Assembly: GCA_045807625.1 (NCBI GenBank)
Contig: JBJMHA010000085.1
Coordinates: forward strand, 38,831 to 102,830
DNA length: 64,000 bases
Direction: 5' to 3'
DNA from: Thermoanaerobaculia bacterium
GTDB taxonomy: Bacteria; Acidobacteriota; Thermoanaerobaculia; Multivoradales; UBA5704
A model generated the notes under the pieces. The model was not told where the DNA came from, did not search any database, and saw only the letters and a program-made list of their open reading frames with translations. The position numbers were made by a program, and so were the translations under genes. Shown in pieces: positions 4,156 to 41,910 of this stretch (the stretch's first letter is position 1; each line of letters starts with the position of its first letter).

Positions 4156-4569
4156 ATGGAGATCACAGAGGTCAAGGTCTTTCCGATTCAAGAAGAGAAG
4201 CTGAAGGCGTTTGTTTCGATCGTTTTTGACCATTGTTTCATGGTCAACGACATCAAGATCATTCAGGGGCGGGACGGGCTGTTCATCAGCATGCCGAGCC
4301 GGAAGAAGAAGAACGGCGAGTTCAAGGACGTCGCCCACCCGCTGAACAACGAGACGCGGCGGATGATCGAGGAGAAGGTCCTGGCCGAGTACGACCACGC
4401 CCTCGAGGAGCGTGGCGAGGCGCCGGCGGACCGGGGGGAGCGGGCCCTGCGGGCTCCCGCGGCGGCCAACGACGCCGAGGAGGCGCGACCCCTCGCCGCC
4501 GCCGTGCCGGAGAAGTCCCTGGAGGAGGTCGAGGAGATCCATCTCCGCGACTCCTTCTGGACCGTGTAA
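4156..4569 (+). CDS. spoVG: Septation protein SpoVG
   Basis: MEITEVKVFPIQEEKLKAFVSIVFDHCFMVNDIKIIQGRDGLFISMPSRKKKNGEFKDVAHPLNNETRRMIEEKVLAEY is a near-canonical SpoVG sequence; acidic Ala/Glu-rich C-terminal tail. Confidence 0.9.
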   Translation: MEITEVKVFPIQEEKLKAFVSIVFDHCFMVNDIKIIQGRDGLFISMPSRKKKNGEFKDVAHPLNNETRRMIEEKVLAEYDHALEERGEAPADRGERALRAPAAANDAEEARPLAAAVPEKSLEEVEEIHLRDSFWTV

Positions 4570-6985: not shown

Positions 6986-7035
6986 GGCCGCCCGGGAGAA
7001 CGGCCCGCTCCGCCCGGGCATTGATGCCCGGGCGG

Positions 7036-16599: not shown

Positions 16600-16925
16600 G
16601 CCTACCGTGCCGCCGCCGAGAAGCTCCGGGCGGGGATCCGCGACGTGGTCTTCCCCCGAGGGGGACGCCGAAAGGCTCTTGGCGAGGGGCACCCGAGCGG
16701 GAGAGACTCTCATGCCGCAAGCGGCACCCGAGAGAGGTGAAAATTCCGTAGGGGCGGCCCTATGTGGCCGCCCTGGGAGGGGGGCCTGCTCCGGCCCTGC
16801 GACCCCACCCACCCAGGGCGGCCACATAGGGCCGCCCCTACATGACCTTCCCTATTTTCAGAACAGAGCGGAGAATAGGTGCCTATTGAGGATTGGCCAC
16901 GTAGATTAGGATGGCACCTGTTCGG
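16600..16925. repeat. Degenerate duplicate of the RAYT 3' end and its downstream region (left direct repeat), interrupted by a REPIN
   Basis: 16600-16712 matches 19384-19447 plus 19638-19680 (gagaagctccgggcNgggatccgcgacgtggtcttcccccg...gccgaaaggctcttggcgaggggcacccgagcggNagag); 16866-16925 matches 19681-19737 (agcggagaataggtgcctattgaggattggcNacgtagattaggatggcacctgttc). About 190 bp present at the right copy are missing here. Confidence 0.55.
16748..16852. repeat. REPIN (perfect inverted pair of GTAGGGGCGGCCCTATGTGGCCGCCCTG REP units around a 45-nt spacer)
   Basis: gtaggggcggccctatgtggccgccctg...cagggcggccacatagggccgcccctac read directly; inserted within the left direct repeat. Confidence 0.75.
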
Positions 16926-16946
16926 GACCAATTCTTTCGCGCTCGG

Positions 16947-17561
16947 CTAGGCTTGACCCACTGTGCCAAGCGCAATATCTCCAGCCGGAACATAGGTGCT
17001 CATCACGACGCCAGATGCTGAGACCTTCGAAGCCACGAGCCGCAGTGCACATGGCCTTGCGCCTTTTTCAAACAATCGCTTCCCACGGCCAAGGACGACG
17101 GGGTACGTCCATACGTGGTATTCGTCAATGAGAGATGCGGCTTGTAGCGTCTGAATTAGATTGCCGCTGCCAATGATTTGAAGATCGTGTCCGGGCTGCC
17201 CCTTGAGCGCGGTGATGGCAGAAACGACGTCACCGCCAAGTACCGATGAGTTGTTCCATTTCAATGACTTCAACGTGCGGGACGCCACATGTTTTTTTGC
17301 CGCGTTGAACGTCCGCGCAATCGCATTATCCTCTGCTTGGTGAGGCCAATAAGCCGCGAACATTTCGTAGGTTTTTCGGCCGAGTACAAGCTCTCGATCT
17401 TTACCATCGAAACCTGCCGCAGAAAGATCCGTTGTTTCGTCCCAGAAAGCCGAGGTCCAACCACCTAACGTAAAATTTCCGGTTGGATCTTCGTCCGGTC
17501 CGCCTGGCGCCTGCATGACACCGTCCAGTGATGTAAATGTGGACGCGATGAGTTTTCTCAT
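16947..17561 (-). CDS. Dihydrofolate reductase family protein (RibD C-terminal-domain type)
   Basis: MRKLIASTFTSLDGVMQAPGGPDEDPTGNFTLGGW...LVLGRKTYE...GSGNLIQTL pattern of the RibD_C/YwjB family; GC content visibly lower (~52%) than surroundings. Confidence 0.75.
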   Translation of the reverse strand: MRKLIASTFTSLDGVMQAPGGPDEDPTGNFTLGGWTSAFWDETTDLSAAGFDGKDRELVLGRKTYEMFAAYWPHQAEDNAIARTFNAAKKHVASRTLKSLKWNNSSVLGGDVVSAITALKGQPGHDLQIIGSGNLIQTLQAASLIDEYHVWTYPVVLGRGKRLFEKGARPCALRLVASKVSASGVVMSTYVPAGDIALGTVGQA

Positions 17562-17700
17562 ATAACTCTCCTATGATTGGATTACATCGTGCTCGCTAAC
17601 GCTTGAGCTGAGCGGCACACCGCAGCGACCGAGCGTCAGCGAGGGCGCGAGGATGTGTCCGCTCGAGCGAGTGTTAGGCGGCGACCTGTCCAGCCAGTTG

Positions 17701-18171
17701 TTACTCCCAATCCTTTTTCAGCATCAGCTCATCTATCCTGTAGGCGTGAAGCATCTCATGCATCAGCATATGCCTGAACATTATATACACCGAGTAGTGG
17801 CTGAACGCCTCATGCTCGGCCGTCCGCTGCCAATCGTCTGCGGATAGCTCCTTCAACCGCTTAACGACCAGCGTCCGCTCCCGCACGTACCGGCCCAGCG
17901 CTTCGTCCAGATCAACGCTCAGTAGTGAGCCGGCCTCCTCGTCCGGTGATGGTTCCATAGACTTTATTTGGGGGAGCGGGTCAGAGAGCATCAACTCCAA
18001 GCGTGCGAGGAATGTCGCCTGCCCGGTAGATATGTGACAGGCATGCTCGTGAGCGGACCACTTGTTCGGCGCAGGGCGGCGCTTGAGGTTCTGGGGTGGC
18101 ACCTCGCGGACGAGGCCAATGATAATGCCAGGCGCGGCCTCTAAAGTAGCTATCAACGTTTGCGTATTCAT
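17701..18171 (-). CDS. DinB/YfiT-like (DinB_2) family metal-dependent protein
   Basis: 156 aa with HEHACHISTGQATFLARL ... MLMHEMLHAYRIDELM four-helix-bundle His motifs typical of DinB_2; low GC like neighbour. Confidence 0.75.
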   Translation of the reverse strand: MNTQTLIATLEAAPGIIIGLVREVPPQNLKRRPAPNKWSAHEHACHISTGQATFLARLELMLSDPLPQIKSMEPSPDEEAGSLLSVDLDEALGRYVRERTLVVKRLKELSADDWQRTAEHEAFSHYSVYIMFRHMLMHEMLHAYRIDELMLKKDWE

Positions 18172-18561
18172 AATCTCCTCCTTAGTCGCGCGCCGCCAGC
18201 AAGCCGCCGCCGAGTAGGCCAGGGGGCCTTACGGCCCCCCAGCCCCTCTAAGAACCGTACGTGCGAGTTTCCCCGCATACGGCTCAAGCACCTCAAAGGC
18301 CGATCCCTTGATCGAACCCGGCTGCCCCTTACGGGACAACCTTCGCGATACTAACATGGTAGGCACCAGGCTCTGGACTCGCCAGAGGAGGGGCTGCACC
18401 GGCGGGTGGTCGAACCACCTCCACCTCTCTTTGCTCTTCCCGTTTAAGGGTGTTCTCGGGGGGCGAGGTGCCATCCGATTCGCGGCGGTTTACCCCCCTC
18501 GCAAACCCAAGTGGTTCTAGGGTGAATCAGATTCGGGACCGATTTTACGTCTTCATAGGGT

Positions 18562-19482
18562 ATGAGCCGACGACTCCGCTTCATCCCCGAAGGAGGAGCC
18601 CTGGTGGAGGTGACCTGCCGGTCGCTCCACAGCCGTCTCCTGTTCCGTCCCAGTCCCGTGCTGAACCAGATCATCATCGGGACTCTCGCCCGGGCCAAGC
18701 AGCGCCACCAGGTCCGGGTCTGTTTCTTCGTCGGCGTCTCCAATCATATGCATCTCTTGCTATGGGTTGAGGACGCCCAAGTGCTATCCAAGTTTATGGG
18801 CTACTTCCTATCGAAGCTGGCGCGGGAGGTCGGGCGCCTGACCGGCTGGAAGGAGAAGATCTTCGGCCGGCGCTACCAGGCCATCGTGGTCAGCCCCGAG
18901 GAGGCCGCCCAGGTCGAGCGACTCCGCTACGGGCTCGCGCACGGCGCGAAAGAGGACCTTGTGGACCGGCCCCGGGATTGGCCCGGAGTCCACGCCGTGC
19001 GGGCGTTGCTCGAAGGCGAGGTCCTGGAAGGGCTCTGGTTCGACCGCACCCAGGAGTACCTGGCGCGCCGCCGTGGCGAGAAGTTTGACCGCCTTCAGTA
19101 CGCGACGCGGGAGGTGCTGGAGCTCGATCCGCTGCCCTGCTGGGAGCACCTGACGGCAGAGCAGAGGCGCGTCCGGATCGCGGCCCTGGTGGAGGACATC
19201 GAGTCCGAGGTCGCCGTCCGGAGGAAGAAGACGGGCGCCAAGCCTCTGGGTGTGGCGGCCGTCCTGGCCAAGAATCCGCTCCAGCGACCGAAGAAGACCA
19301 AAAAGTCGCCCGCGCCGGCTTTCCATGCGGCGAGCAGGGCCGTGCGCCGCGGGCTCTGGGACGCCTACTCCCTGTTCGTCGCGGCCTACCGTACCGCGGC
19401 TGAGAAGCTCCGGGCCGGGATCCGCGACGTGGTCTTCCCCCGGGGGAGCTTCCCGCCACCGTTGCCGTTCGTGGGTGGATAG
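18562..19482 (+). CDS. REP-associated tyrosine transposase (RAYT; IS200/IS605-like Y1 HuH transposase family)
   Basis: 306 aa; HuH motif in VSNHMHLLLWVED, downstream catalytic-Tyr region GRRYQAIVV; window contains multiple GTAG-headed REP/REPIN palindromes, the known substrates of RAYTs. Confidence 0.7.
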   Translation: MSRRLRFIPEGGALVEVTCRSLHSRLLFRPSPVLNQIIIGTLARAKQRHQVRVCFFVGVSNHMHLLLWVEDAQVLSKFMGYFLSKLAREVGRLTGWKEKIFGRRYQAIVVSPEEAAQVERLRYGLAHGAKEDLVDRPRDWPGVHAVRALLEGEVLEGLWFDRTQEYLARRRGEKFDRLQYATREVLELDPLPCWEHLTAEQRRVRIAALVEDIESEVAVRRKKTGAKPLGVAAVLAKNPLQRPKKTKKSPAPAFHAASRAVRRGLWDAYSLFVAAYRTAAEKLRAGIRDVVFPRGSFPPPLPFVGG

Positions 19483-19637
19483 GCCGGCGCAGCAGTGTTC
19501 TTGACCTGATGGAAACTGACCACGGCGCTCCGGGAGGAGTGGACAGCGGAGGTGTGTCCAGGTGAACTGTTCGGGCGAGGATACCGGAAGCGGATGTCGG
19601 CAATCTCGGTCGAATTTGGGGTAGGGAGATACCCGGA

Positions 19638-24265: not shown

Positions 24266-24670
24266 ATGGGCACCCAGCGCCGTTTTCCGGACGATATCGT
24301 TGCCGCGATCCGGGACGGGAAGATCCTCGGCATCCGGGCCGGAGCTCAGCCGCACCGCTTCATCGGGATCTGGGCCGTGGTGGTGGAGGGCCGGGTCTTC
24401 GTGCGCTCGTGGAGCCTCAAGCCGCGGAGCTGGTATCGCACGTTCCTCGTAGAGCCGCATGGGGCGATCCAGGCCGCCGGGCGCGAGATCCCCGTCCGCG
24501 CCGTCCACACCAGGAGCGAACGCCTGAAGGCCGCCGTCGACCAGGCCTATCTGGAGAAGTACAAGACCCCGGGATCGATCAAGTACGCCCGGGATCTCGG
24601 CGCCGAGCCGTCCCGAAATACGACTACAGAGCTCGTGCCGGAACAGGCGCCAACTCCTACTCAGAGCTGA
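24266..24670 (+). CDS. DUF2255-like small protein
   Basis: MGTQRRFPDDIVAAIRDGKILGIRAGAQPHRFIGIWAVVVEGRVFVRSWSLKPRSWYRTF matches the conserved pattern of DUF2255 family proteins. Confidence 0.55.
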   Translation: MGTQRRFPDDIVAAIRDGKILGIRAGAQPHRFIGIWAVVVEGRVFVRSWSLKPRSWYRTFLVEPHGAIQAAGREIPVRAVHTRSERLKAAVDQAYLEKYKTPGSIKYARDLGAEPSRNTTTELVPEQAPTPTQS

Positions 24671-25447: not shown

Positions 25448-25564
25448 GGCCATTCTCCTTATGAGCTCAAGAGGGATGCGCCGGTCCGTGTCATGGACGT
25501 CCGGCAGGGGATCGGGGGTGCACAATTGCTGATTCATTTTCGTTTCCTTTCCTTCAAGTCCGGT

Positions 25565-28210
25565 TTACGAGGCGGACAGGGAAGCCACCACCTGCTCCAG
25601 AAGCGCGATCAGAGTCGTGACGTCCGCACCGTCCGCCTGGGCCTTGCGCAGCGAGGAGGTGGCCTGTTGCAGGAAGGCGATCGCCGCCTGGGTATTGCCG
25701 TTTCGGATCTTCTCCAGCGCCCCGTTGCTGCCGTTGGGGTTTCCGAACAGGGCCTTGCGGGCCTTCTCCAGATCCTTGAGGACCTTCGGGTCCGTCGTGC
25801 CCGCGATGGCGCTGTCGAGCAGGCCGACGATCTCCTGGACCGCCTGCTGGGGAGTGACCACGCGGACGGTCGTGGATTGAGCTCCCACGCCGCCGTCGTC
25901 ATCCACCACCGAAAGCACGACCGGGAACGTGCCCGCCTGGGTGTACCGGTGCCGTTGCGACACGGCGCCGGTGCCGTCGCCGAAGGCCTCGTCGAAGGCC
26001 GTGAAGGCGGTCTGGGGCTCGACCGAGCCGTCGCCCCAGGCGAGCGTGGCGGTCTGATGATCAAGCCGTCCCGGATCGCTGAAGCTCGCGCTGGTGGTCA
26101 CCGGCACGTTGGTGAGCACGAAGGGCACCTCGACGTTCACCTGCCGCCCCGCGCTGTCGGCGACGCGGAACTGCGTGAGCTGGGGCGCCACGTTGCGGAC
26201 GTGGATTTTGGCGAACGCCTGACCCACGGGGCCCCCGGAAGGATGTTGCGCCTGCACCGGAACCGTGACGTCCGACGGACCGTCGAAGGCGGCGGCGTTG
26301 AAGGTGACGGAAGATCCCGTGGTCTCGTAGCTGCCGTTGAGGTCGAGGTCCCACGCGAGAGTGAACGGCGTGGCGTAGTACCGGTCGCAATCATCCAGGA
26401 AGTCGACCGCGTCCAATTCCTGATCGATGTCGTCCGTGCCGCCGTCGTTCAGAACGAATTTCAGGTCGGGGTCCTGGCGCGTGATCCCATCGCCGGCGAG
26501 GGTCCGCGCCTCGTCGATGGTGCCCTGCTCGTGATCGATGGCGAAGATGGAGCAGCCGGCCGGCGCGAACCACCTCCACGACCGGGCCTTGTCGGCGCGG
26601 GTGACGAGGAACGGAGGGTTGGAGAACACGATCCGGGGCTCCAGGGCGAAGAAGTTGTCGAAGTTGTCGAGATCGAAATCGGCAAAGTCGACGACCGTGT
26701 CGAACGAATGGAAGTCGGTCTCGTCGTAGAGCTGGATCCACGCCTTGGTGATCGGGGGCGCGGCGGTTCCGCTGAGGCTCACGCTGCCTCCCTCGTCGAC
26801 CTCATAGGGACCATTCACCACCGCGGTCGGCAGCAGCGTCGGGCTGCCTTCGCGCGCCATGTCCTGATGCCGCCACTCGCCGGCCTTGACGGTCTCGTCG
26901 GGCCCGTCGTTGTCATGCTCGGTGGCGTAGAAAATCAGCTCGCCGCTCGGGGTGACGTGGAAGCCGGTCGCCGCCGCGAGGTTGGCCAGCCGGGTTCCGC
27001 CGTTGCTCGGGAAGGGGGAGATCCGCTTCCCGTGGACGATCACCGTAAAGTGGACCTCCTCGCCGGGAGCGCAGTCCGGCGTGTCGCACTCCACGCGATA
27101 GAGATCGATGCGGTCGTGATCGCCGAAAATCGGATTGCCGCGGGCGCCGGCCATGTACAGGTCGCCGTTGATGCTGCCTTCCCGCAGGAATTGGAAGGTT
27201 TGATGGGAGTCCTCGACTTCCGGCACCTTGGTGCGCGCCACGAATTCCCATTGGAGATCGGGGCTCGCCAGGTCTCCGCTCGTGGAGCGGTAGAAGAAGA
27301 TGGGGTCTTCGTCCTCGAAACCGCCCTTGACCGCCAACAGGTAGCGCCCTCCGGGCAACGGCGTGACGCCGACCCCGTCGGCGGCCTGCAGGGGCTTTCT
27401 CGCGGGATCGCCCTCCGGCCCGTCGAACGGCGCGAGTTGGCTCTTGAACACCGGAGCCTCCGGATCGCTGGCGTCGAAGAACAGCACCACCGCGGGGTGA
27501 GGCGCCACGTCGTAGTTGGGGTCGGGAATCGGCGGCAGCGGGAATTGCGGGGTCGAATTCGGATTGGGAATGGTCGGCCGCTTCGGGGTATCGGCCCCCA
27601 CGGCCAGCATGTGGCCGACGAGCTGCATGCCGCCCGGATGCCCGTAGACGCGCTGCACGGGCCCGGGGCCTTCGCCGTCGCGGAAGACAAGGCCCGGACG
27701 CTTGGCCGGGTCCGGATCGCCGGGATCACCGCCCACGACCGTGAAGAAGATCGTGGCGACGTCCTCCGCGGGCGGCGCGGTGGCGTCGACGTGAACGCCC
27801 TTGCGCAGGCGGTTGCTCCGCAGGCGCTCGCGGTTCTTGTCGCGGGAGCCCATGCGGAAAACGATCAGGTTTCCGTCGCGTTTCTCGTGCGGGGAATCAT
27901 CGCACACGAGCTCGTCGGGCAGGATCGGGATGTCCGGCGTGTTGCCGCTGCGGGTGACCAGAAAGAAGGGCGTGCCGTCCGCCCCATCCACGCGGGTGAT
28001 CGCCTGATAGTGCCTGCACATGCTCGGGTTCGGCGTGGTGCTGATGTGGAATCCGAGCGGGTCCGCGCGCTCGGTCAGCGCCTGGAACTGCTCGATCACG
28101 TTGGGTACGAAGCGCATGCCGTCGGCCCGGTCGCTCTGCTGAGCGCCGGCGGGCGGCGGAGCCAGCAGCGACGCGAGCGCCGCGGCTTTCAGGAACGTCT
28201 GTATTCTCAT
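25565..28210 (-). CDS. Large secreted protein with PKD domain and conserved C-terminal helical domain
   Basis: 881 aa; signal peptide MRIQTFLKAAALASLLAPPPAGAQQ; PKD-type segment (TATLAWGDGSVEPQTAFT...HRYTQAGTFPVVLSVVDDDGGVG); C-terminal ~85 aa (AVQEIVGLLDSAIAGTTDPKVLKDLEKARKALFGN...AIAFLQQATSSLRKAQADGADVTTLIALLEQVV) similar to C-terminus of lipoprotein 14702..16378. Confidence 0.8.
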   Translation of the reverse strand: MRIQTFLKAAALASLLAPPPAGAQQSDRADGMRFVPNVIEQFQALTERADPLGFHISTTPNPSMCRHYQAITRVDGADGTPFFLVTRSGNTPDIPILPDELVCDDSPHEKRDGNLIVFRMGSRDKNRERLRSNRLRKGVHVDATAPPAEDVATIFFTVVGGDPGDPDPAKRPGLVFRDGEGPGPVQRVYGHPGGMQLVGHMLAVGADTPKRPTIPNPNSTPQFPLPPIPDPNYDVAPHPAVVLFFDASDPEAPVFKSQLAPFDGPEGDPARKPLQAADGVGVTPLPGGRYLLAVKGGFEDEDPIFFYRSTSGDLASPDLQWEFVARTKVPEVEDSHQTFQFLREGSINGDLYMAGARGNPIFGDHDRIDLYRVECDTPDCAPGEEVHFTVIVHGKRISPFPSNGGTRLANLAAATGFHVTPSGELIFYATEHDNDGPDETVKAGEWRHQDMAREGSPTLLPTAVVNGPYEVDEGGSVSLSGTAAPPITKAWIQLYDETDFHSFDTVVDFADFDLDNFDNFFALEPRIVFSNPPFLVTRADKARSWRWFAPAGCSIFAIDHEQGTIDEARTLAGDGITRQDPDLKFVLNDGGTDDIDQELDAVDFLDDCDRYYATPFTLAWDLDLNGSYETTGSSVTFNAAAFDGPSDVTVPVQAQHPSGGPVGQAFAKIHVRNVAPQLTQFRVADSAGRQVNVEVPFVLTNVPVTTSASFSDPGRLDHQTATLAWGDGSVEPQTAFTAFDEAFGDGTGAVSQRHRYTQAGTFPVVLSVVDDDGGVGAQSTTVRVVTPQQAVQEIVGLLDSAIAGTTDPKVLKDLEKARKALFGNPNGSNGALEKIRNGNTQAAIAFLQQATSSLRKAQADGADVTTLIALLEQVVASLSAS

Positions 28211-28366
28211 GATCCATCTCCTGTGTCGAAAGGTTTGCGCGAAGCGTGCGCACAGGAGAAATCGGAATGAGTGGAGAAAAGACGACAGCGAAGGATGCCC
28301 AGGAAGCGAAGAGCCGGCCGGATGGGCCCGGCCGGCTCCTCTCCTACGGAGGCTCAGCGCCGTCAG

Positions 28367-28510
28367 TTACTGCGGGCAGGACACGACGACGGAAAAGATG
28401 GTGGTGATGGTATCGGTGAAAATACCGCCGCCGACGCCGGCGAGCTTGTCGTGGTCGAGCTGGCGGAGCGTCTCGCGGGACAACTGAAGCGGCTGGAGCT
28501 TCCTTTTCAT
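28367..28510 (-). CDS. Small ORF (47 aa) with double-glycine-type leader-peptide-like N-terminus
   Basis: ATG 28510 preceded by GGAAGGAGAG RBS (~7 nt); MKRKLQPLQLSRETLRQLDHDKLAGVGGG|IFTDTITTIFSVVVSCPQ: charged leader ending in GG followed by hydrophobic Thr/Ser-rich core with one Cys. Confidence 0.45.
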   Translation of the reverse strand: MKRKLQPLQLSRETLRQLDHDKLAGVGGGIFTDTITTIFSVVVSCPQ

Positions 28511-28787
28511 GGGTTTCTCTCCTTCCAAGAGCTTGGGTTTATCGATCTTTGATGCTCGTCTGTGCCGTGCCAGTAGGGGGTGGCGACGACACCCGGATGC
28601 TCTGGAGATCGGAATTCGTGGGGAAAAGACGACAGGGGTCTTCAATCTGCCTGGATTTGGCGTTCTCGGCAGGTTGGCCCTCATTTGATCCCCACTGGGC
28701 CCGGCCCTCTTCTCCCGGCCTCCCCTCCGGCCTGACGGGAGAAGAGGGAGAAGTTAGCTCAGCTTGTCAAAAGCCCCCTCTCTCCCG

Positions 28788-31309
<2,522 letters not shown>

Positions 31310-31313
<4 letters not shown>

Positions 31314-31885
31314 TGGAGGAGCCCCGGGCGCAGGGCGTGGCGAAGGTAGATCCGTGCCTTGTCCCAATGCCGCTGCACCGTGCGCTCGCTGGACCCCCGG
31401 AGGCTGGCGATCTCGGCGAAGGTGAAGCCGCAGAAGAACTTGAGCTCGACGACTTGCGCGATTTCGGGCTCCACGGCGGCGAGCTCGTCGAGAGCCTGGC
31501 TGAGCCGCTCCATCTCCTCGGCCTCGTCCGAAGGGGTTGCGTCGCCCAGATCCTTGCCGTCGAGAGAGGTCATCGCGAAATCGCCGCCGCGCTTCTGAGC
31601 CTGCCGGCGGCGCAGGCCGTCGACGATCAAGCCGCGCATGACCCGGGCCGCATACCCGAGGAACCGGGCGCGGTCGGGGAAAGCCAGGTCCTCGCGGCGG
31701 GCCAGATCGAGATAAGCCTCATGAAGCAGGCTGGTCGCGCCGAGCGAAGCGCCCGGACCCGACCGCGCGAGCTCGCGGCGGGCGAGCCCGCGGAGCTCCC
31801 GGTAGAACGCCGAGAAAAGTGCTTCGGAGCCTTGGCCGTCGCCGCGATTGGTGGGGGGGATCGGAATTGAGAAGGAGCGTTCCAT
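31310..31885 (-). CDS. ECF-type RNA polymerase sigma factor (kinase-associated subfamily, TIGR02999-like)
   Basis: 191 aa from ATG 31885: ...LFSAFYRELRGLARRELAR...LLHEAYLDLARR... region 2 and ...AQVVELKFFCGFTFAEIASLRGSSERTVQRHWDKARIYLRHAL region 4 HTH; immediately upstream of the STK. Confidence 0.8.
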
Positions 31886-32035
31886 GGGTCGCCTCGCTGT
31901 CCCTACGGAAGCGTGCCGAGGCCGCGAAGCTTGCGGTCTCGCACTGTCGAGGAGGGAACGCTCGGGAGGGGGATTTCCCCTCACACTGGGAGGGACCGCC
32001 ATGGGCCATGCCGCGGATGGGGAACGCGCGGTGTG

Positions 32036-32272
32036 ATGTATGATAGAGCCATGCAACTCGCTACCGGTATCGTTGTGAAGGGAAAAGTCGTCGTGGAGGG
32101 AGAACCCCTGCCCGAGGGCACCGTGGTCACCATTCTTGCCCGTGAAGCGGACGAGACCTTCGAAGTGCCGCCGGAGCTCGAGGCCGAGCTTTCGGCGTCC
32201 ATTGCTGAAGCCGACCGTGGCGAGACCATCGCCGCAGACGAGCTGATCGATCGCCTGCGGCGGATCGCTTGA
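32036..32272 (+). CDS. Putative type II antitoxin (addiction-module component, TIGR02574-like C-terminus)
   Basis: MYDRAMQLATGIVVKGKVVVEGEPLPEGTVVTILAREADETFEVPPELEAELSASIAEADRGETIAADELIDRLRRIA; C-terminal acidic EIE..AE...GE.I.A.E...RL pattern of that family; stop overlaps TTG start of a ParE-like remnant. Confidence 0.55.
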   Translation: MYDRAMQLATGIVVKGKVVVEGEPLPEGTVVTILAREADETFEVPPELEAELSASIAEADRGETIAADELIDRLRRIA

Positions 32273-32403
32273 GCAAAGGTCTAGAGGTCGAGGTCACACC
32301 GCGAGCCGCGGCGCAGATCGAGCGGGCCGCGGCATGGTGGGCTGAGAACCGGCGCAGCGAACATGCTGTAGACTCTGGCAGGCTTGTTCATCTAGCGTTG
32401 TAG
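32269..32403 (+). pseudogene. Truncated ParE/RelE-family toxin gene (N-terminal ~35 codons retained)
   Basis: TTG-start ORF LSKGLEVEVTPRAAAQIERAAAWWAENRRSEHA... matches ParE N-terminus pattern (V.WTP.A..D...I..YIA..NP.AA) then diverges into low-GC sequence and stops at 32401-32403; start overlaps antitoxin stop (TTGA). Confidence 0.45.
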
Positions 32404-32544
32404 ACTGGAGAGAGGCTAGAGTAGTGGCACCAAATCCCCCTGAAGAAATGCTCTAGTCCCTTGCAGGCTATAATATGTTTGATCATGATAAGCCAAGCTC
32501 CGATGTCGCTAAGCCGGGACATTGCTGATCGAGATCGGTGAGCG

Positions 32545-35500
32545 ATGCTGGGGCTTACGGCAGCACATCGGGGTTATGAATATCAGGATCTTCTCGTCGC
32601 TTGCCGCCTTGTCGACGTACTTTTAGGCACCCTCGTCCAGGTCCATGTAGATGAGAAGTTGATTCCTGGTGACCGCTTTGACGATCTTACAACCGTAGAT
32701 ATCAGTGGTCACCGTGAGCGGATTCAATTCAAACACACAGATAACGACGACAAACCTCTAACACTCGCGACGTTTACGAGCGACGATAGAGGTCTTCGGC
32801 TTGATCGCCTCATCGCCGCGATACTCACCGACCGTTTAGGCCCAGGAAGTCATTCTAAGCATCATAGCTTTCGCGTGATTCTTCGGGATAAGCCGCCCTT
32901 AGATCCGCGCCTCACGGCCGTCCTAGCTCCCACCGCAGTTGATCCAGGGCCATTCATACCGGCCATGCCGACAATACGACTGGCCTTTGATGCTGAGGCC
33001 TTGTGGAAACACGTCGAGCAAAAGTCCAACATAGATTCACCCCCTGGTGAGGGTTATTTCGGATTCCTTTCTAATGAAGAGATGCCTATGTTGCGAGCTG
33101 ACCTCGAATGGGCGTGCCAGCACCTCATAATCGAGGTAGCGGCTCCAGCAGCAAGTGGAGACCTGACAACCCCTGAGATAGCCGAACGCCTGCTCCTAAT
33201 GCGAGTCCGTACCGACGTTGGCGCGGAGGCATACCCTAATGTGAACCGCTCTGCGATTGATGTCGCTGCGGCGATGATTGGAGCTGCCCGCGCAGCCCGT
33301 CAGAGGCGACTTATTATTTCCTCTGACGAGTTACTTCGCTGGGCGCAGTTGCGCCACGATTTCGGGGCCGTCTCACGCGCTCATCCGGTTGATCGTAGCG
33401 TCGAGGTTTTAAGAACAATAACAGTCCGAAAGCTTGCAGAGTCTACGGCTGAGCTAGCAAATATCGGAGGGCGACTTCTTGTGGTCGGTCCGCCTGGTCA
33501 AGGTAAGTCGTGGGTTTGTCAGCAACTTCTAGACGAGCTGTCATCCCGCGGATGGCTTACTTCGGAGCACTACTGCTATTTGGGCGATGCCGATGGTGAG
33601 CGATTGGCGCGAGTTCTCGCAGAAACAGTCTTTGGAAGTCTCCTCGGTCGGCTCGCTGATGCCGATCCCAGGTTAGTCGTCGACCATCGGCCACGTTTCG
33701 CAGCTGACGAGGAGGCGCTCATCGGTTGTCTCACTCGGTCCCTCCAATATGATCCGCAACGCCCAGTGGCACTTCTAGTGGACGGAATCGATCACATAAC
33801 TCGAATTCGTTCTAGAGGTGGCAACTTTGATCCTTCCTTGAACCTTGCTGAGGCACTTAGCGCCCTGGCGTTGCCGAAGGGTAGCGTGCTAATCGTCTTG
33901 AGTCAACCTGGGGTACATCTAAAGCCCCTCGAAGAGGCGGGAGCTACAACACTTACCATCCCCGGGTTAGACGAGATTGAGATTCGTTCGCTCGCTGCAC
34001 GTCTCCGTGTCGTGCCTCCGATAGGCATGGCCTCTTACAATGGCGACAGACCATTGCTCGAGACTGACGAAGCTGTATCTGAGTTTCTTTCGGCGCTAGC
34101 AGATCGATCAGCAGGCAACGCTCTGTATGCCACGTATCTTTGCAGGGAGGCCCTCCGTCAGGACTCCACACCTGCGGACCCGGCTACCATAGTGAGAAGC
34201 TTCCCTCCATTCGATGGAACACTCGAGAGCTACTATCAATACTTGCATTCAACGCTTGGTGCCGAAAGTGGGTGGGTTGCCGATGTCATTGCCTTAATAG
34301 ACTTTGCTGTCAACCGTTCCGAGTTACTTGAGATCAGGCCAGATGCATCGCATCATATCGACAAGGCTCTCGAAGTTCTTGCTCCAGTTCTCGTAGAGCG
34401 AGCTGCTCAAGGCGGCGTTCGTATATACCATGAATCCTTTGCTAGATTCCTGCGTCGCCCATTTCAGAACGATCCTATCGCGCTCGGTGCTCTCCTCAAT
34501 CTGATCGCTGCTTGGTTGGAGAGAAAAGGCTTCTTCTCAGACCCTCGAGCTTTCAGCTCTCTCCTTCCGACTCTTACCGAAGCTGGTCGCGATGCTGAAG
34601 TGGTCACTCTCATAGAGCGAGGCTTCGTGGTTCGTGCAGTAGCCGCCGGTTTCTCGGCATCTTCTATTAACAACAACCTCGCAACTGCAATTGGATCCGC
34701 AGCGCGGATCAAGAATTGGCCGGCTGTTGCCCGTTATGTAGAGCTGTCGCGAGCTGCGGATGCTTATCAGGACGAACGCTTTGATTCCAGTTTAGTGCAA
34801 TTCGCCGATATACCGATGGCGTTACTCGGACCAGGAGTTGTTTCGGATCGCTTACTGCATAACGATCGGCTTGTAATGCCCGCGAGGTCTGGGCTTCAGA
34901 TGTGTGCCGCTGTCGACGAACTCGGTGCGGTTGCACCTTGGAGTCAGTACATGAGAGGGTATCTGCGCGAAGCTAAAGCTGACAATACCTCTTATGGTGC
35001 AGAATCCGACCGCAAAGTGGCTCTGGCATGGTTGCGCGGTCGGCTTCGCCTCTCAGTGTTGTTGGAGAGCTCAGAACATCAAGCTAATCTTGGGAGCCAC
35101 GATGATGATAACGATGGCGAGCCGAATGACAGAGAATGGAACCCGGCTAGCCCGCTGGATTGGAACCGTTTAGTGCATTGGGTGAATAGGCGAAGGCTTC
35201 CTGCATTCGATGTGGTCAAGGCTATCTACGATACCTATGGCCTGCCGAGCGTGATTAAGTTTATTCGAATGCTTGATCGTCCGGGAGATATGTATTTGGC
35301 GCTCGCTGAGTTAACCATGGTTAATGGAGCTGTTGATAGCACTATCAATGCGCGACAGTGGGCAATCAATGCCGCATCTTGCGGAGTGGTGCCAGGTTCA
35401 GCGTATCGGATGCTGGCGCTTGGAGTAGATCTATCAAATCTTGCAATCTTATCTGTTAGTGATGCCCGTGATCGCTTGCTATCTCTGACGCAGGATCTCC

Positions 35501-38500
35501 AACATCGATCCGCTCAGTGGGAAGGTTCGAGTATTGGTGAGTGGCTAGATGCGTGTGCCGTTGCTGCCCGTCGAGATTTACTTGGTCTTAACTCCGCCGA
35601 GGCGCTTATTTGTGGAGAAGGATGGTACCGATGCTGGCTTCGATTCTGTGTGGCACTCGTGCGTGCGGAGTCCGCCCACGTCGCTGATCAATCAGTCCTC
35701 GCTCTGGATGCGCTCCGTTGCCTTACTGAAGACCTAAATCCTTTTTCGGGCGAGCCCCGATCGTGCGATCTTTATTCGATCCATGGACGAATAGAGGATA
35801 CAATCCGACGGGCCATGGGCCTCCTTAACGATTCTGGATGGTCGGAAGCTCTTTTGCTGCTGAGAGGAGTTAGTCGATCAATAACAACGACCATCCAAGG
35901 AGAGTTGGGCGGTCCACTTCCGCCTAGTTTGCTTCTCCGGATCGCTCTCGATGGGGCAACGCCAACGCGCCGAGAGGTTGCCACCGATTTTGTCGCAGAA
36001 GAGATTGAGAACGGATCTGCACGTCGATACTATTCAGATCTGGCAGAGTATCGTCTCCTTGGATCCCGGCTCGCGCTTGCTTCGGGTGAAAGAGTAGAAG
36101 CAACTCGACTGTGGCATGAGGCTTGTGAGATGCTTACGGCTTATGGGTGGCACAAAGATATTACAATTTACGAGCTACTTGATCCCTTGCCGGCTCTTAT
36201 TGCTGCGGACCCGGCTCGTAGCCGTAACTGCGTAGCACGCGTGCAACCGGTATGCGAGAGAGTTCCCATCCACACTGACGGAAAGGGAACTCGCCAAGTT
36301 TGGGAGCGCTGGTGGGAACTGCTAGCCAAAGCGGATCCAGTAGCCCTTGCACACCTTGCAGCAAGTCGTCTGCTATGTGAATGCAATGATCCCAACTGGT
36401 TGCTGCATGGTGCACTGGTAGACCTTTGGCGTGAGTGGCAGGAGAGAACAGATCCGATCATTGCGGGCGCTCTCCGGCTTACTCTTGATATCGCATTAGA
36501 TCCTAGAGATCCTCTCGCGCTCGCCCGTCTGACGGATCGAATTAACAGAGGCGACAGTAGCTGTAATGAGCTAATGGCTCTGCTCCTGGCGAGAGCAGAT
36601 GAGCGCCCAGTGGAATATAGCTACTCAAATAGCAGTGAGTTGCTCGCGAAAGACGATGCGCGCATGGCGGAGTTCAACCTCGTGGCGCAACAAGCGAATT
36701 TACCACAAGCTATGCCCGTTCGCGAATTCCGTGATGGAGCATCGCCGTCGCGGTCCCTGCGCGGCGCTGTACGCCGTTCCTTATCTAAAGCTGCTTTTGT
36801 CTTCACGGATATTACTGCTTGTTTTCCTGCCGGCGCTGTTGGGCTCGCTTATGCGACACGGGCATGGCGTAGCCGCCCCTATGATGCGCCAGAGGCAAAC
36901 TGGAGTGTGGATCGCTTCGCAAACATCATTGGCTACCGAATGATAGAGCTCATAAATACCGGAAGAGAGGGGGACATGGTGGCCTCACTGTTATCACTTG
37001 CCGAGGCAACGAGGTTCTATGACCAATTCGGCATACTACGAGCAGTAGCAGAGGGACTGGAGCGCCATCGTCAGCATCGCCTTGCGGCTATGGCTTATAC
37101 GCTTGCCTGGACGAGGGCGCGCAACCACGGTGGTTGGCTGAGGTTCGGAGGAGAAACTGAGATCGATTCGTTGCACCGTGCCACTCAGTTGGATCATGGA
37201 CTCGTACTCAGTGTTGTCGCGGATGAGGTTCAGAGAACTGTTGCCGGAGGTTACGGCACCTACGGAATCTCCCAAGCTCTCATCTACGGTTTTGGGGTCG
37301 GAGCACTTTCCTCCTGCGGCACCTCATCCTTAGATACAGCGTTTGGTGTATGGGACGAAATTTTTTCTGTCATTGCAAGTAGGGCACCGCGGGTACACCC
37401 GTCGGATGACCCCGATGATACGTACACTCCACCCGATCCGGATGATGGCACCGCCGCTCCAGGTGACCTGGACGCTGCGTTGGCCCTGAGCACTCTTGCA
37501 GGTCTTGCCCATCCCGCCCGTGAGAAGAAGCGGCGAACATTGTTAGCGGTGCAACTTCTATTGTCCGAACGCCCGACCCAATCAGCACTCGCCGTAGACC
37601 TTGCCCTTGCCAATCTTTCAGACCCGGCAACACTTACTTGGTTACTTCGGGTGGTAGAGCAGTCGGGTGAGCCGAGGGAGATCGTGGTTGCTAAGTGTCA
37701 GGAAACTCTTACACGACTAGCTACTGGGCCGTACTTGACGATCCGCGCACTTGCACGGCGCCTTCTGCGGGGAGCCGAACCGCCCTTGCCACCGCCGACA
37801 CCTGCGGATAGAGCGCTCGTTGAAGACTGCTCAGTAGACCTCTGGACCCCGCATGGAAATAACTATGAGCCTCTACAGCCGCCTGGACGAAATGAAGAGT
37901 TCTTGGATCTAGTGGCTGGGTTAAGGCTGGAAGAAGCCGAGTCTCTATTGCCGGGGCTTCGAAAAGGTGTGCTCACCCGCCTATCCACTGCAATCCACGA
38001 TGAAACTCGTCAGAAACGGCTGCGTGCACAACTTGATGCCTTCGCCGATCGCCTCGGTCAACAATGGCCAAATGCTTATTTGATACCAGAGCAGACTGTC
38101 GAGGAAATGCTACAACTTGTAGCAACTGGCGGACGTGCGGCTCGGATCGTAAAGGGCAACCCAAGCACTGATCCGGTGCGATGGGAAGATACGCTCGCCT
38201 CTAAGCTTCTCGACGACCCAATGCTACCGATCCGAGTTGAAGGTTGCCGACAGCCACGACCACTAATCCCACCACCACCGGCGCTTCGGGATCCAATCTG
38301 GAGTGATGTTGCGAGTGAACGTGAGCAGGTACTAGCCGCAACTTTGACAGTGGAGTCCTTTGACACTGCTGCAATTATGGCCGGAGGTCGGTTCCATGGT
38401 TGGCGAGTTATTGCTACTGTAGAGACACGAATGGTTAAGCATCCCGATCCAAATATACGCAAGGAACTCGTCGCCAAGCGCTATAGAGCCCTCGAAGTCA

Positions 38501-38976
38501 GAAAGCCTGGTGATCGACGGGGACTAACTTTACCACCCTTTGCAGGGGGTGATATACGTTGGTGGAGCACCTCAGTCGAAGATTTTTCTAATTCGAAGCC
38601 ACACACTCTTAGTGGAAGCCACCCTGTTATTGGTCTAGATAATGATGTCGAGGCGGCAGGCGACGGCCTCCAGAGTCTCGGAATCCCGATACCACTCCTC
38701 TGTCCTACCATTTGGTTGATGGCAACTTTGGGCCTTCGTCCGGGAGAGCCGTTTATACTCGACGCTGAGGATGGCCCTGGCCTTTCGCTCGTTATATGGC
38801 GTACGGATTACGACACCAGTGAGTACTATCTAACGCGCCCTCGTATTTGGGGAGCGGCGATCTTTATGCGGCAAGCTATGCTCGATCGACTAGTTGATGC
38901 GGTCGGTAGTGCTCTCAGCATTCGGGACTTCATCGTTGGTGACTTGGATCTAAGCTCTCCTGCGAGAGAGACTTAG
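32545..38976 (+). CDS. Giant (2143 aa) STAND-type P-loop NTPase with N-terminal nuclease-like domain and long helical C-terminal region; Avs/AVAST-like candidate anti-phage protein
   Basis: Single uninterrupted ORF in a ~53% GC island. N-term GYEYQDLLVACRLVDVL...HVDEKL...DLTTVDISGHRERIQFKH (restriction-endonuclease-fold-like, Cap4/DUF4297-like); Walker A VVGPPGQGKSW (~aa 314-324); Walker B ALLVDGIDH (~aa 402-410); then ~1600 aa of Leu/Ala/Arg-rich helical sequence. Confidence 0.85.
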   Translation: MLGLTAAHRGYEYQDLLVACRLVDVLLGTLVQVHVDEKLIPGDRFDDLTTVDISGHRERIQFKHTDNDDKPLTLATFTSDDRGLRLDRLIAAILTDRLGPGSHSKHHSFRVILRDKPPLDPRLTAVLAPTAVDPGPFIPAMPTIRLAFDAEALWKHVEQKSNIDSPPGEGYFGFLSNEEMPMLRADLEWACQHLIIEVAAPAASGDLTTPEIAERLLLMRVRTDVGAEAYPNVNRSAIDVAAAMIGAARAARQRRLIISSDELLRWAQLRHDFGAVSRAHPVDRSVEVLRTITVRKLAESTAELANIGGRLLVVGPPGQGKSWVCQQLLDELSSRGWLTSEHYCYLGDADGERLARVLAETVFGSLLGRLADADPRLVVDHRPRFAADEEALIGCLTRSLQYDPQRPVALLVDGIDHITRIRSRGGNFDPSLNLAEALSALALPKGSVLIVLSQPGVHLKPLEEAGATTLTIPGLDEIEIRSLAARLRVVPPIGMASYNGDRPLLETDEAVSEFLSALADRSAGNALYATYLCREALRQDSTPADPATIVRSFPPFDGTLESYYQYLHSTLGAESGWVADVIALIDFAVNRSELLEIRPDASHHIDKALEVLAPVLVERAAQGGVRIYHESFARFLRRPFQNDPIALGALLNLIAAWLERKGFFSDPRAFSSLLPTLTEAGRDAEVVTLIERGFVVRAVAAGFSASSINNNLATAIGSAARIKNWPAVARYVELSRAADAYQDERFDSSLVQFADIPMALLGPGVVSDRLLHNDRLVMPARSGLQMCAAVDELGAVAPWSQYMRGYLREAKADNTSYGAESDRKVALAWLRGRLRLSVLLESSEHQANLGSHDDDNDGEPNDREWNPASPLDWNRLVHWVNRRRLPAFDVVKAIYDTYGLPSVIKFIRMLDRPGDMYLALAELTMVNGAVDSTINARQWAINAASCGVVPGSAYRMLALGVDLSNLAILSVSDARDRLLSLTQDLQHRSAQWEGSSIGEWLDACAVAARRDLLGLNSAEALICGEGWYRCWLRFCVALVRAESAHVADQSVLALDALRCLTEDLNPFSGEPRSCDLYSIHGRIEDTIRRAMGLLNDSGWSEALLLLRGVSRSITTTIQGELGGPLPPSLLLRIALDGATPTRREVATDFVAEEIENGSARRYYSDLAEYRLLGSRLALASGERVEATRLWHEACEMLTAYGWHKDITIYELLDPLPALIAADPARSRNCVARVQPVCERVPIHTDGKGTRQVWERWWELLAKADPVALAHLAASRLLCECNDPNWLLHGALVDLWREWQERTDPIIAGALRLTLDIALDPRDPLALARLTDRINRGDSSCNELMALLLARADERPVEYSYSNSSELLAKDDARMAEFNLVAQQANLPQAMPVREFRDGASPSRSLRGAVRRSLSKAAFVFTDITACFPAGAVGLAYATRAWRSRPYDAPEANWSVDRFANIIGYRMIELINTGREGDMVASLLSLAEATRFYDQFGILRAVAEGLERHRQHRLAAMAYTLAWTRARNHGGWLRFGGETEIDSLHRATQLDHGLVLSVVADEVQRTVAGGYGTYGISQALIYGFGVGALSSCGTSSLDTAFGVWDEIFSVIASRAPRVHPSDDPDDTYTPPDPDDGTAAPGDLDAALALSTLAGLAHPAREKKRRTLLAVQLLLSERPTQSALAVDLALANLSDPATLTWLLRVVEQSGEPREIVVAKCQETLTRLATGPYLTIRALARRLLRGAEPPLPPPTPADRALVEDCSVDLWTPHGNNYEPLQPPGRNEEFLDLVAGLRLEEAESLLPGLRKGVLTRLSTAIHDETRQKRLRAQLDAFADRLGQQWPNAYLIPEQTVEEMLQLVATGGRAARIVKGNPSTDPVRWEDTLASKLLDDPMLPIRVEGCRQPRPLIPPPPALRDPIWSDVASEREQVLAATLTVESFDTAAIMAGGRFHGWRVIATVETRMVKHPDPNIRKELVAKRYRALEVRKPGDRRGLTLPPFAGGDIRWWSTSVEDFSNSKPHTLSGSHPVIGLDNDVEAAGDGLQSLGIPIPLLCPTIWLMATLGLRPGEPFILDAEDGPGLSLVIWRTDYDTSEYYLTRPRIWGAAIFMRQAMLDRLVDAVGSALSIRDFIVGDLDLSSPARET

Positions 38977-39055
38977 AGTTTTTCAAACGCCCTCCAGTCC
39001 AGCGGAGGTGCAGTCAAAAGGTGCCAGGCAACTTCCCAGACGGTAAGATCCCCCC

Positions 39056-39904
39056 ATGAAGCGAATCCTGGTCACCGGAGCCACCGGCACGATCGGCCGC
39101 CATGTGGTCTCCCAACTGCTGGCCACAGAGCCCCAAGTCCGCGCGATGACCCGCAACCCGGGCTCCGCAGGCCTGCCGTCTGGGATCGAGGTGGCGCGCG
39201 GCGATCTTACCGATCCCGCGAGCCTCGATGAGTGCCTGGAGGGCGTCGATTCGGTGTTCCTCGTGTGGACCGCCCCGGCCGATGCCTTCCCGGCCGCCTT
39301 GGACCGGATCGCCCGGCAGGCCCGGCGCGTCGTGCTCCTGACCTCTCCGCACAAGACGCCGCACCCGCTCTTCCAGCAGGCCAACCCGATGGCGGCGATG
39401 TATGCGGAGATCGAACGGCGGATTGAGGCGTCGGGCCTCCAGTGGACATTTTTGCGGCCGGGGATGTTCGCCGCCAACGCTCTGGCCTGGTGGGGACCCC
39501 AGATCCGTGCCGGAGGCGTCGTGCGCTGGCCCTATGGCGAGGCTCCGACGGCTCCCATCCATGAACGGGACGTCGCGGCAGTCGCGGTCCGCGCCCTGCT
39601 GGAGGACGGGCACGGCAGGGCGGAATACGTTCTGACCGGCCCCGAATCGTTGAGCCAGCGCGAGCAGGTGACCGCGATCGGCGAGGGGATCGGCAGGCCC
39701 TTGCGTTTCGAGGAGATCTCGTCGGAGGAGGCGCGGCGCGAGCTCCCCTTTCCAGCGTCCGCCCTGGACATGCTGCTCAAGGCCTGGGCCGCCGCCCTCG
39801 GGCACCCCGCGCTCGTTACCTCCACGGTCGAAGAGGTCACCGGAAAGCCGGCGCGATCGTTCCGGGACTGGGTGAGCGATCACACCGGAGAGCTCCGGGC
39901 ATAG
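39056..39904 (+). CDS. NAD(P)H-binding NmrA-like/atypical SDR family oxidoreductase
   Basis: MKRILVTGATGTIGRHVVSQLL (Rossmann GxxGxxG) ... family-typical layout, 282 aa. Confidence 0.8.
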   Translation: MKRILVTGATGTIGRHVVSQLLATEPQVRAMTRNPGSAGLPSGIEVARGDLTDPASLDECLEGVDSVFLVWTAPADAFPAALDRIARQARRVVLLTSPHKTPHPLFQQANPMAAMYAEIERRIEASGLQWTFLRPGMFAANALAWWGPQIRAGGVVRWPYGEAPTAPIHERDVAAVAVRALLEDGHGRAEYVLTGPESLSQREQVTAIGEGIGRPLRFEEISSEEARRELPFPASALDMLLKAWAAALGHPALVTSTVEEVTGKPARSFRDWVSDHTGELRA

Positions 39905-39933
39905 AATCTCGACCCGACCAGGGAGGTGAGCCG

Positions 39934-40301
39934 ATGAGCGTTCCCAGACTGTCCGCCGTGCTTCTCAACGCTACCATCCTCGTCGCCGGGCTGAGCCAGG
40001 CGACGCTGGCCTTCGCCCAGGGCGCGCCGCCTGCCGCGCCTCCGTCTTCCACGGCGGCTCCGAAGGCGGCCCCGGTCCCCCCGGCATCCGCGCGAGACGA
40101 GAGCCTGCCTCCCTCCGAGGGGCAGGCCAAGGCCGCGCTGGAGAAGTCGCCTCGCTGGGGAAGGCCTACGAGCCCCACGTCTACGACGGCGCCGGTCACG
40201 GCTTCCTGCGGGCCCAGGACGACCGCGCGGGCGCCAACCTCAAGGCGGTGCAGAGCGCTTGGCCGCGCACGGTGGCCTTCCTGCGCGAGCACCTGAAGTG
40301 A
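39934..40301 (+). pseudogene. Dienelactone hydrolase-family gene remnant with internal deletion/frameshift
   Basis: Frame 1 encodes signal peptide MSVPRLSAVLLNATILVAGLSQATLAFAQG...; another frame ending at 40301 encodes GEVASLGKAYEPHVYDGAGHGFLRAQDDRAGANLKAVQSAWPRTVAFLREHLK*, the conserved C-terminus of DLH. Only ~120 codons total vs ~250-290 expected. Confidence 0.5.
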
Positions 40302-40741: not shown

Positions 40742-40813
40742 CCTTTGGCGGCGGGTTGGCATAGGATGCCCCTGTAGTCGGGGTTTTTCCTTTAATCTTC
40801 AAAGGAGCGCACG

Positions 40814-41266: not shown

Positions 41267-41292
41267 ATGGGCCGGAAGGCGAAGATCCCGTA

Positions 41293-41910
41293 ATGGCCCG
41301 GAGCGCGGCTGAGGAGTACTTCGCCAGAGAGTTCGAGCCCGCGATCCCGGGCTACCGCTCGCGGAAGGCCGGGGACCGCGATCTGCTGTCCATGACCAAG
41401 GTGGCGCTCCTGGAGGCGGTGGAGACCGTGGAGGATCTCCCGCGATCCCACTGGGTCTGGCAGCCCGGCTATGCGGTCCAGACCGTGAACGTCTACCGCA
41501 TCCGGGATCTCTGCACGTTTCGCTTGCGCGAGAATCCCCTGGACGAGCGGGCCTTGTGGACGCGGATTGGGCTCGCCCTGCAGTGCCCGCCGGACGATTT
41601 CGACCGCGACGCCTTCGACAGGCTCCGGAAACTGGATGGCTTCGAGGTGTGCTGGCCGGTCTACGCGGCCTGCTTCATTCAGCAGGCCTGGGCGGCCTCG
41701 CAATCGGTGGGGCTGGGGAAATTCCTGCGAGAGGCGGGGCTCCTCGCCGCGGCCGGTCCGGTCCTCGCGGCCATCCGGGAGCGCCGGGATCCTTATATCG
41801 ACGTCTTTGAATCGGAAGAGCTCACGAGAGAATATGCCGCCGAGTGCCTGGAGATCGCGCTCTGGGAGCCCCCGGCCGATGAGGAGAGCCATGGACGAAG
41901 AGACCCGTAA
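41293..41910 (+). CDS. Hypothetical protein
   Basis: Internal ATG of ORF 40939..41910 (MARSAAEEYFAREFEPAIPGYRSRKAGDRDLL...); start of ORF is inside previous gene so trimmed; overlaps downstream deaminase start. Confidence 0.55.
   Translation: MARSAAEEYFAREFEPAIPGYRSRKAGDRDLLSMTKVALLEAVETVEDLPRSHWVWQPGYAVQTVNVYRIRDLCTFRLRENPLDERALWTRIGLALQCPPDDFDRDAFDRLRKLDGFEVCWPVYAACFIQQAWAASQSVGLGKFLREAGLLAAAGPVLAAIRERRDPYIDVFESEELTREYAAECLEIALWEPPADEESHGRRDP

Follow-up and report, generated by a model that had tools for sequence, protein, structure and literature searches.

In a 64,000-nt stretch of a Thermoanaerobaculia genome (GenBank assembly GCA_045807625.1, contig JBJMHA010000085.1, positions 38,831 to 102,830; hereafter the window), the interval between the genes for an ECF sigma factor and an NmrA-like protein holds an intact antitoxin gene, the first codons of a parE toxin gene and a low-GC block with a single long gene that resembles Avs genes. 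In our reading, which we hold to be probable, a ParE-type toxin–antitoxin (TA) cassette had settled in this interval, the 3′ part of its toxin gene was replaced by the foreign Avs-like block, and the antitoxin was thereby orphaned. The interval would once have held a complete type II TA module, in which the gene for a 73-aa antitoxin of no known class overlapped that for a ParE-family toxin of 101 aa by TTGA. A foreign block of ~6.7 kb (32354-39053) would then have joined the locus, following toxin codon 28 on the left and stopping shortly before the NmrA-like start codon on the right, and toxin codons 29-101 would have been deleted with whatever lay beyond. The joining itself could have come about by illegitimate recombination, which we favor, or by exchange through the conserved flanks.

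The antitoxin gene (32051..32272, plus strand) encodes 73 aa (MQLATGIVVKGKVVVEGEPLPEGTVVTILAREADETFEVPPELEAELSASIAEADRGETIAADELIDRLRRIA) and is now without a working toxin partner. Its stop codon overlaps, as TTGA, the TTG start of a 44-aa open reading frame (ORF; 32269-32403, plus strand), which is made of two parts: 28 homologous codons (32269..32353) and a 16-residue tail encoded by island DNA (RSEHAVDSGRLVHLAL, then the stop; 32354..32403). Codons 1-28 (MSKGLEVEVTPRAAAQIERAAAWWAENR, ending ...AAWWAENR) are 89% identical by tblastn to the N-terminus of the toxins of relatives, which are 97-101 aa long and lie in the same position with the same TTGA overlap. The full-length toxins of four loci (L001, L002, L003 and L008) match Pfam PF05016 ParE_toxin at E values of 7e-7 to 9e-11 and 30-43 bits (gathering cut-off 23 bits), whereas the 44-aa product itself has no Pfam, NCBIfam or PADLOC match at E<=1. 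The 44-aa ORF is what is left of a ParE gene, and its product is no ParE protein. The initial annotation, made by a model from the DNA letters, had given both ORFs, their overlap, the end of the second at 32403 and its ParE-like N-terminus, all of which hold; the ParE homology it put at ~35 codons amounts to 28.

The breakpoint lies at 32353/32354. In nearly all close TA loci blastn homology to the window ends at 32349-32353, after GAGAACCGGC; in the remaining TA loci it ends earlier or, in L013, at 32358. The closest loci (L001-L009; 86-93% identity) all end at 32352-32353, and the residues RSEHA are already island sequence. Toxin residues 29-101 were found nowhere in the 64-kb window, downstream of the island included, by tblastn with the full-length toxin as query and default statistics. 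The initial annotation had likewise seen no ParE C-terminus beyond the island, and had left it undecided whether the island was inserted into the toxin gene or replaced its 3′ part; the comparative data support this proposal in its second form, because the window has no toxin 3′ end, whether at the right junction or anywhere else, which also means that the 3′ part was deleted and not displaced. A second ParE-like gene at 24394-24588, weakly matched in a permissive tblastn search, disappeared with default statistics and was discarded as spurious. Of the toxin fold the stub would keep approximately the first helix and a portion of the second, with the whole beta-sheet core and the C-terminus gone; as it ends in 16 unrelated residues and should be unable to fold into ParE, the locus would be non-toxic.

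Base composition changes at the same point. GC content is 0.69 in the left flank, 0.64 in the TA stub, 0.54 in the block (32354-39053) and 0.65-0.70 in the right flank, and the step falls exactly at the end of toxin homology, as had been annotated, at 32353/32354 and not at the ~32370 given there. GC content at third codon positions (GC3) separates three classes: host genes at 0.84-0.87, the antitoxin at 0.70 and the large ORF at 0.49. These values bear on whether the toxin was lost together with the arrival of the block. It could first have been inactivated by deletion, the Avs-like block landing later beside a dead stub; truncations at codons 31, 40 and 43 occur without such an island (L006/L007, L053 and L020), and the selection for toxin loss is obvious. 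We nevertheless judge this order of events unlikely: homology ends at the very base where the compositional step lies, with no host-like or third-class sequence in between, so that a single replacement is the more parsimonious account.

The junctions give little indication of a dedicated mobile element. The 5′ end of the block (32354..32544; GC 0.51) is non-coding and has a TATAAT at 32469-32474; at the other end, the 3′ tail and right junction (38977..39055; GC 0.57) are matched by no relative before the NmrA-like ATG, where right-hand blastn homology of L073, L074 and L075 resumes (39054-39056). No homologs of the non-coding ends were found by blastn against all fetched loci, so that neither a donor nor microhomology could be found. 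The block holds one ORF only and no recombinase, integrase or transposase gene, there is no tRNA within 28-43 kb, Rfam had no match at the block junctions, and promoter and terminator consensus scans at both junctions were empty. In 7.3 kb there are at least 60 families of direct repeats and 112 inverted pairs, and no flanking repeat stands out among them. The short inverted motifs reported at 32423 and ~38991 in the initial annotation do not bear weight: GACTGGAG lies at 32403 and CTCCAGTC at 38992, and 14% of shuffles give an inverted 8-mer shared by the junction segments of 192 bp and 79 bp (P=0.14), which is chance level. The search for att-like repeats suggested there returned only chance-level 8-mers. 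The block thus has none of the marks of an integrase- or transposase-borne island, namely a recombinase, att or target-site repeats, or a tRNA.

The gene that fills the block (32545..38976, plus strand) encodes a single Avs-like STAND NTPase of 2143 aa, as judged from Pfam, AlphaFold2 (AF2), Foldseek and homologs. Residues ~1-300 form a predicted Cap4-like nuclease domain; the AF2 model of residues 1-300 (pLDDT 86, pTM 0.81) has as its best Foldseek match in the PDB Avs3 (8dgc_A, E 1.3e-5), with further matches to Hachiman HamA (8zue_A), Cap4 (7yib) and LmuA (9nxx) within an E range of 1.3e-5 to 3e-3. All of these structures represent Cap4-type nucleases from defence systems. Strong conservation also marks the N-terminal 300 residues, including HRGYEYQD, DRFDDLTT and RERxQFKH (RERIQFKH in the window, with the conserved D/E-x-K residues), and the motifs D..D...RE.xQFK are kept in 20 homologs. 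A P-loop NTPase with the Walker A motif GPPGQGKS follows (residues ~309-450, nt ~33469-33894), with Pfam matches spanning residues 309-484: AAA_22 at 27.2 bits (cut-off 27.0), AAA_16 at 30.5 (32.6), NPHP3_N at 24.4 (24.8) and a weak match to NACHT (E 0.004). The remaining ~1650 residues form a long C-terminal region which, from the domain order, is a putative sensor.

NCBI lists a protein of a Thermoanaerobaculia metagenome-assembled genome (MAG) that is identical to the 2143-aa protein, which has 343 homologs at E<=1e-5; the best 120 are mostly full length and include proteins of Blastocatellia and Acidimicrobiia, the closest non-self homolog among them being 57% identical. Genes next to these homologs encode other STAND/TPR ATPases, QueC, a FokI-domain protein, RecD2 and radical-SAM proteins, and other homologs adjoin the conjugation genes TrwC and SSB. 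The protein has an Avs-like architecture and lies outside every defined Avs family. By analogy of fold and domain order it may serve in defence: with a Cap4-like PD-(D/E)xK nuclease, a STAND NTPase and the long C-terminal putative sensor it would, like Avs3, assemble into oligomers once it recognises a phage protein, and cut DNA.

The flanks of the interval are conserved in relatives. On the left lies the ECF sigma factor gene (31310..31885, minus strand; Pfam Sigma70_ECF, E 1.5e-39), with a nucleotide identity of 88% to L073 and 81% to L009; on the right lies the gene for an NmrA-like NAD(P)-binding protein (39056..39904, plus strand; NmrA, E 1.5e-23; NAD_binding_10, E 7.7e-24), 87% identical to L073. 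The latter, a 3.7-kb soil contig, matches 30037-31895 (a kinase gene and the ECF sigma gene) at 88% and 39056-39944 at 87%, and in it only ~220 bp, containing neither TA nor island, separate the sigma gene from the NmrA-like gene. It supplies the empty site that the initial annotation had proposed to look for in related genomes. In the MAG L009 (Thermoanaerobaculia), which is collinear with window 28814-31891 at 81% and thus syntenic on the left flank, the sigma gene is accompanied by the same TA, its toxin full length but frameshifted, and then by a 902-aa protein gene and other genes not in the window. L075 reads sigma gene, 371-aa gene, VapBC pair (on the opposite strand), NmrA; in L074 the 371-aa gene precedes NmrA. 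Because the same flanking core genes enclose different or no cargo in relatives, the sigma–NmrA interval is, on comparison of the sequences, a strain-variable hotspot.

In addition, ~610 bp with a PIN-like gene remnant lie between sigma gene and TA in L009 (3864-4620), and a 72-bp fragment of the sigma gene (window 31707-31778) is duplicated there at 4475-4547; the duplication and the PIN-like remnant are evidence of repeated rearrangement at the hotspot. The protein of 351-371 aa that fills the hotspot in L074 (2-1057) and L075 (733-1848) has no Pfam match. In L005 (1464-2115) it follows a decayed copy of the same TA, with a different sigma gene upstream, and the cargo genes appear to travel together. 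A perfect palindrome resembling repetitive extragenic palindromic (REP) elements, GCCCGGGCATTGATGCCCGGGC, occurs once in the window (7012-7033), and a near-identical copy lies in the empty sigma/NmrA intergenic region of L073 (1991-2012); this might point to a REP site at the hotspot.

The full-length toxin at the syntenic site of L009 indicates that the short toxin ORF is derived here and not ancestral. The 44-aa ORF could be taken for a genuine ancestral small gene, encoding a functional mini-toxin or regulator, since its start codon still overlaps the antitoxin stop and its frame has stayed open, and L006 and L007 have a comparable ORF of 53 aa. This is exceedingly improbable. The last 16 residues come from unrelated island DNA, the breakpoint and tail differ in L006/L007, the gene is full length in L009 and 39 other loci, the product has no Pfam match, and the same 44-aa sequence, tail included, was not found among 86 loci.

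The comparison with relatives also bears on where stub and island were joined. Antitoxin, stub and Avs-like gene may have been imported as one pre-formed block by homologous recombination in the sigma and NmrA-like flanks, the truncation having occurred earlier in another genome. L073, the closest relative with both flanks, lacks TA and island alike, the contents of the hotspot differ wholesale between relatives, and there are no mobility genes or repeats in the block, all of which would suit such an import. Yet GC3 drops from 0.70 in the TA stub to 0.49 in the island, with the step exactly at the breakpoint; a compositional difference this sharp indicates that stub and island are of different origin, although it does not tell where they were joined. 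Moreover, the locus in L009 is occupied by the same TA, there with a full-length toxin, and L009 matches the window from 31989 on, ~40 nt to the left of the cassette limit. We therefore regard joint import as somewhat unlikely and replacement of the toxin 3′ part within the hotspot as the better account.

Several points weigh against that account. The order of events, whether in one step or several, is inferred, and the absence of the TA as well as the island from L073 means that the stub could have arrived with the island. Any expression or activity of the antitoxin is conjectural, and the sensor role of the C-terminal region of the 2143-aa protein is putative. As to the identity of that protein, Avs1-5 profile hidden Markov models (HMMs) failed to recognise it, except for a local Avs1b match of 21.4 bits in PADLOC and 22.2 bits in NCBIfam (NCBIfam cut-off 1500 bits), and phmmer of the full protein against PDB sequences gave no meaningful match. 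Finally, the window is from a MAG and both junctions are known from the assembly alone. Mis-assembly could have joined a low-GC segment to the host contig, and the compositional edges are sharp enough to raise the suspicion. Such an artefact is very improbable, as both flanks lie on the same contig, are host-like and are collinear with L073, so that mis-assembly would have to supply two chimeric joins, and in the right order; besides, the ORF at 32545-38976 is complete and aligns end to end with full-length homologs, and the interval is variable in four other assemblies.

The antitoxin belongs to a large family that is absent from the curated HMM libraries. It has more than 1200 homologs, the 120 best being 79-99% identical, and has no Pfam, NCBIfam or PADLOC match at E<=1. 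It fits none of the TIGR02574, ParD, RHH and Phd/YefM HMMs (searched in NCBIfam and Pfam, with PADLOC and by PDB profile), and the TIGR02574-like character once assigned to it is therefore not borne out. Thirty family members searched against Pfam gave isolated single-member matches (best E 0.056) and no shared family; a profile of 30 antitoxins searched against PDB sequences gave only weak matches, the best (E 0.0098) being an unrelated pirin-family protein, with local matches to the YefM C-terminus at E 0.3-0.6. The AF2 monomer (pLDDT 69, pTM 0.28), of a confidence too low for a fold search, suggests an N-terminal beta-hairpin and two C-terminal helices. Position, overlap and conserved pairing with ParE nevertheless identify the 73-aa gene as a predicted type II antitoxin: a ParE gene lies directly downstream of the antitoxin and overlaps it in 39 of 70 informative loci from several phyla.

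The cassette itself is sharply bounded. In an alignment of 11 loci from unrelated contexts, conservation begins ~20 nt before the antitoxin ATG, in a leader (GGTGTATGATAGAGCC...; 32030..32050, plus strand) that sets the left limit of cassette homology; the right limit is the toxin stop. The blastn alignments start at 32026-32051 in the closest TA loci, at 31989 in L009 and inside the gene in some more distant loci. The cassette occurs in unrelated contexts across phyla (Thermoanaerobaculia, Burkholderiales, Ramlibacter and others) at 72-93% nucleotide identity. The conserved GGTGTATnATnGAG upstream of the antitoxin ATG (window 32030-32050; L001-L013) contains a TATGAT-like -10 element and no obvious ribosome-binding site, so that the cassette mRNA may be leaderless. 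The cassette is bare, its limits being razor-sharp even between unrelated genomes. An integron-type cassette was considered and rejected, since nothing is conserved after the toxin stop and no attC-like element was seen.

Loss of the toxin is common in this family. The 70 informative loci comprise 39 with an intact toxin, 11 with a frameshift, stop or indel, 4 with a truncated toxin and 16 without a recognisable toxin, so that the toxin is lost or damaged in 31 of them; sequencing errors in MAGs and divergent partner toxins inflate the classes named last. The truncations lie at codon 28 (window), 31 (L006/L007), 40 (L053) and 43 (L020). L006 breaks ~8 nt beyond the window breakpoint and is joined to different DNA there, which makes it an independent event. 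We do not claim the clustering at codons 28-43 as a recombination hotspot, given that there are 4 events only and a detection bias against shorter stubs. In L011 (3159-3693) an orphan antitoxin copy lies beside BrnT/BrnA-like genes, and in L055 (8271-8546) beside a DUF433-like gene, all labelled by eye from translations; these neighbours suggest TA-rich variable islands.

The antitoxin, by comparison, is left intact, as an orphan of a family with strong protein-level conservation. Between the window and other loci, its ratio of nonsynonymous to synonymous substitution rates (dN/dS) is 0.03-0.25, and in antitoxin pairs in which both toxins are independently dead it is 0.03-0.11; values this low could reflect either selection that still goes on or inactivation in the recent past. 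In well-studied genomes orphan antitoxins are plentiful, and roles in anti-addiction or regulation have been suggested for them (PMC10790755). The one in the window would at most act in trans, by neutralising paralogous or incoming ParE cassettes or by repressing its own promoter. Orphan antitoxin and stub might, beyond this, be kept under selection, either as trans anti-addiction immunity against mobile ParE cassettes or as the TA promoter and repressor now controlling the Avs-like gene, which lies 270 bp downstream on the same strand. The dN/dS of 0.03-0.11 even between loci with independently dead toxins hints at retention, as does the position of all four truncations with a detectable stub in toxin codons 28-43, but we consider such selection quite unlikely.

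Three kinds of known system resemble the parts of this locus. With ParDE-type type II TA systems, whose toxins belong to the RelE/ParE superfamily, it shares the antitoxin-first order and the 4-nt overlap onto a toxin of ~100 aa, but only 28 of 101 toxin codons are left in the window, and the antitoxin fits no ParD HMM. Like the orphan antitoxins and decayed TAs surveyed in E. coli (PMC10790755), the window has an intact antitoxin without its cognate toxin after gene loss; it differs from them in that the breakpoint is known exactly, along with the incoming DNA and a relative with the empty site, and in belonging to an unannotated family of environmental bacteria (Thermoanaerobaculia, Burkholderiales and others). 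The island protein shares its N-terminal nuclease fold with Avs3 (PDB 8DGC), Cap4 (7YIB), HamA (8ZUE) and LmuA (9NXX), and with Avs3 also a P-loop STAND NTPase followed by a very long C-terminus (2143 aa against 2028 residues in the Avs3 chain). As in Avs3-type systems, it is a single-gene system whose homologs lie in defence-island or mobile-element neighbourhoods. It differs from Avs3 in having no sequence-level match to it or to any PDB chain, the likeness coming from fold and domain order.

The interval, finally, resembles core-flanked defence and integration hotspots: the ECF sigma and NmrA-like genes flank different cargo in each relative, and there is no dedicated integrase. Among the cargo are TA modules (the ParE-type cassette and VapBC) and a defence-like gene, and the sigma–NmrA case is documented from five metagenomic assemblies. 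Elsewhere in the window, ~3.3 kb (25466-28813) are extra compared with the syntenic L009, with an 881-aa ORF on the minus strand (25565-28210), and are a second strain-variable segment. To the right of the NmrA-like gene (window 41267-41910 and 40742-40798 against L074), ~640 bp of the window are absent from L074 and ~1.26 kb of L074 are absent from the window. A second low-GC patch, at 16900-19500 (GC 0.55 at 17-18 kb), contains RibD_C-like (16947-17561) and DinB-like (17701-18171) ORFs and adjoins an IS200/RAYT-like ORF (18562-19482), all three labelled by eye from translations.

Toxin decay, orphan antitoxins and the sharing of variable islands by TA and defence genes are ordinary and well known. 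What the window offers is a clean, base-resolved case, at the strength of the reading given above, in which the arrival of a defence gene in a core-flanked hotspot has put the resident TA out of action, with an empty-site relative and a relative with a full-length toxin available for comparison. It also brings out two unannotated families that deserve a place in TA and defence catalogues: an antitoxin cognate to ParE, widespread but fitted by no curated model, and proteins of ~2150 aa that combine a Cap4-like nuclease with a STAND NTPase and have at least 340 members.

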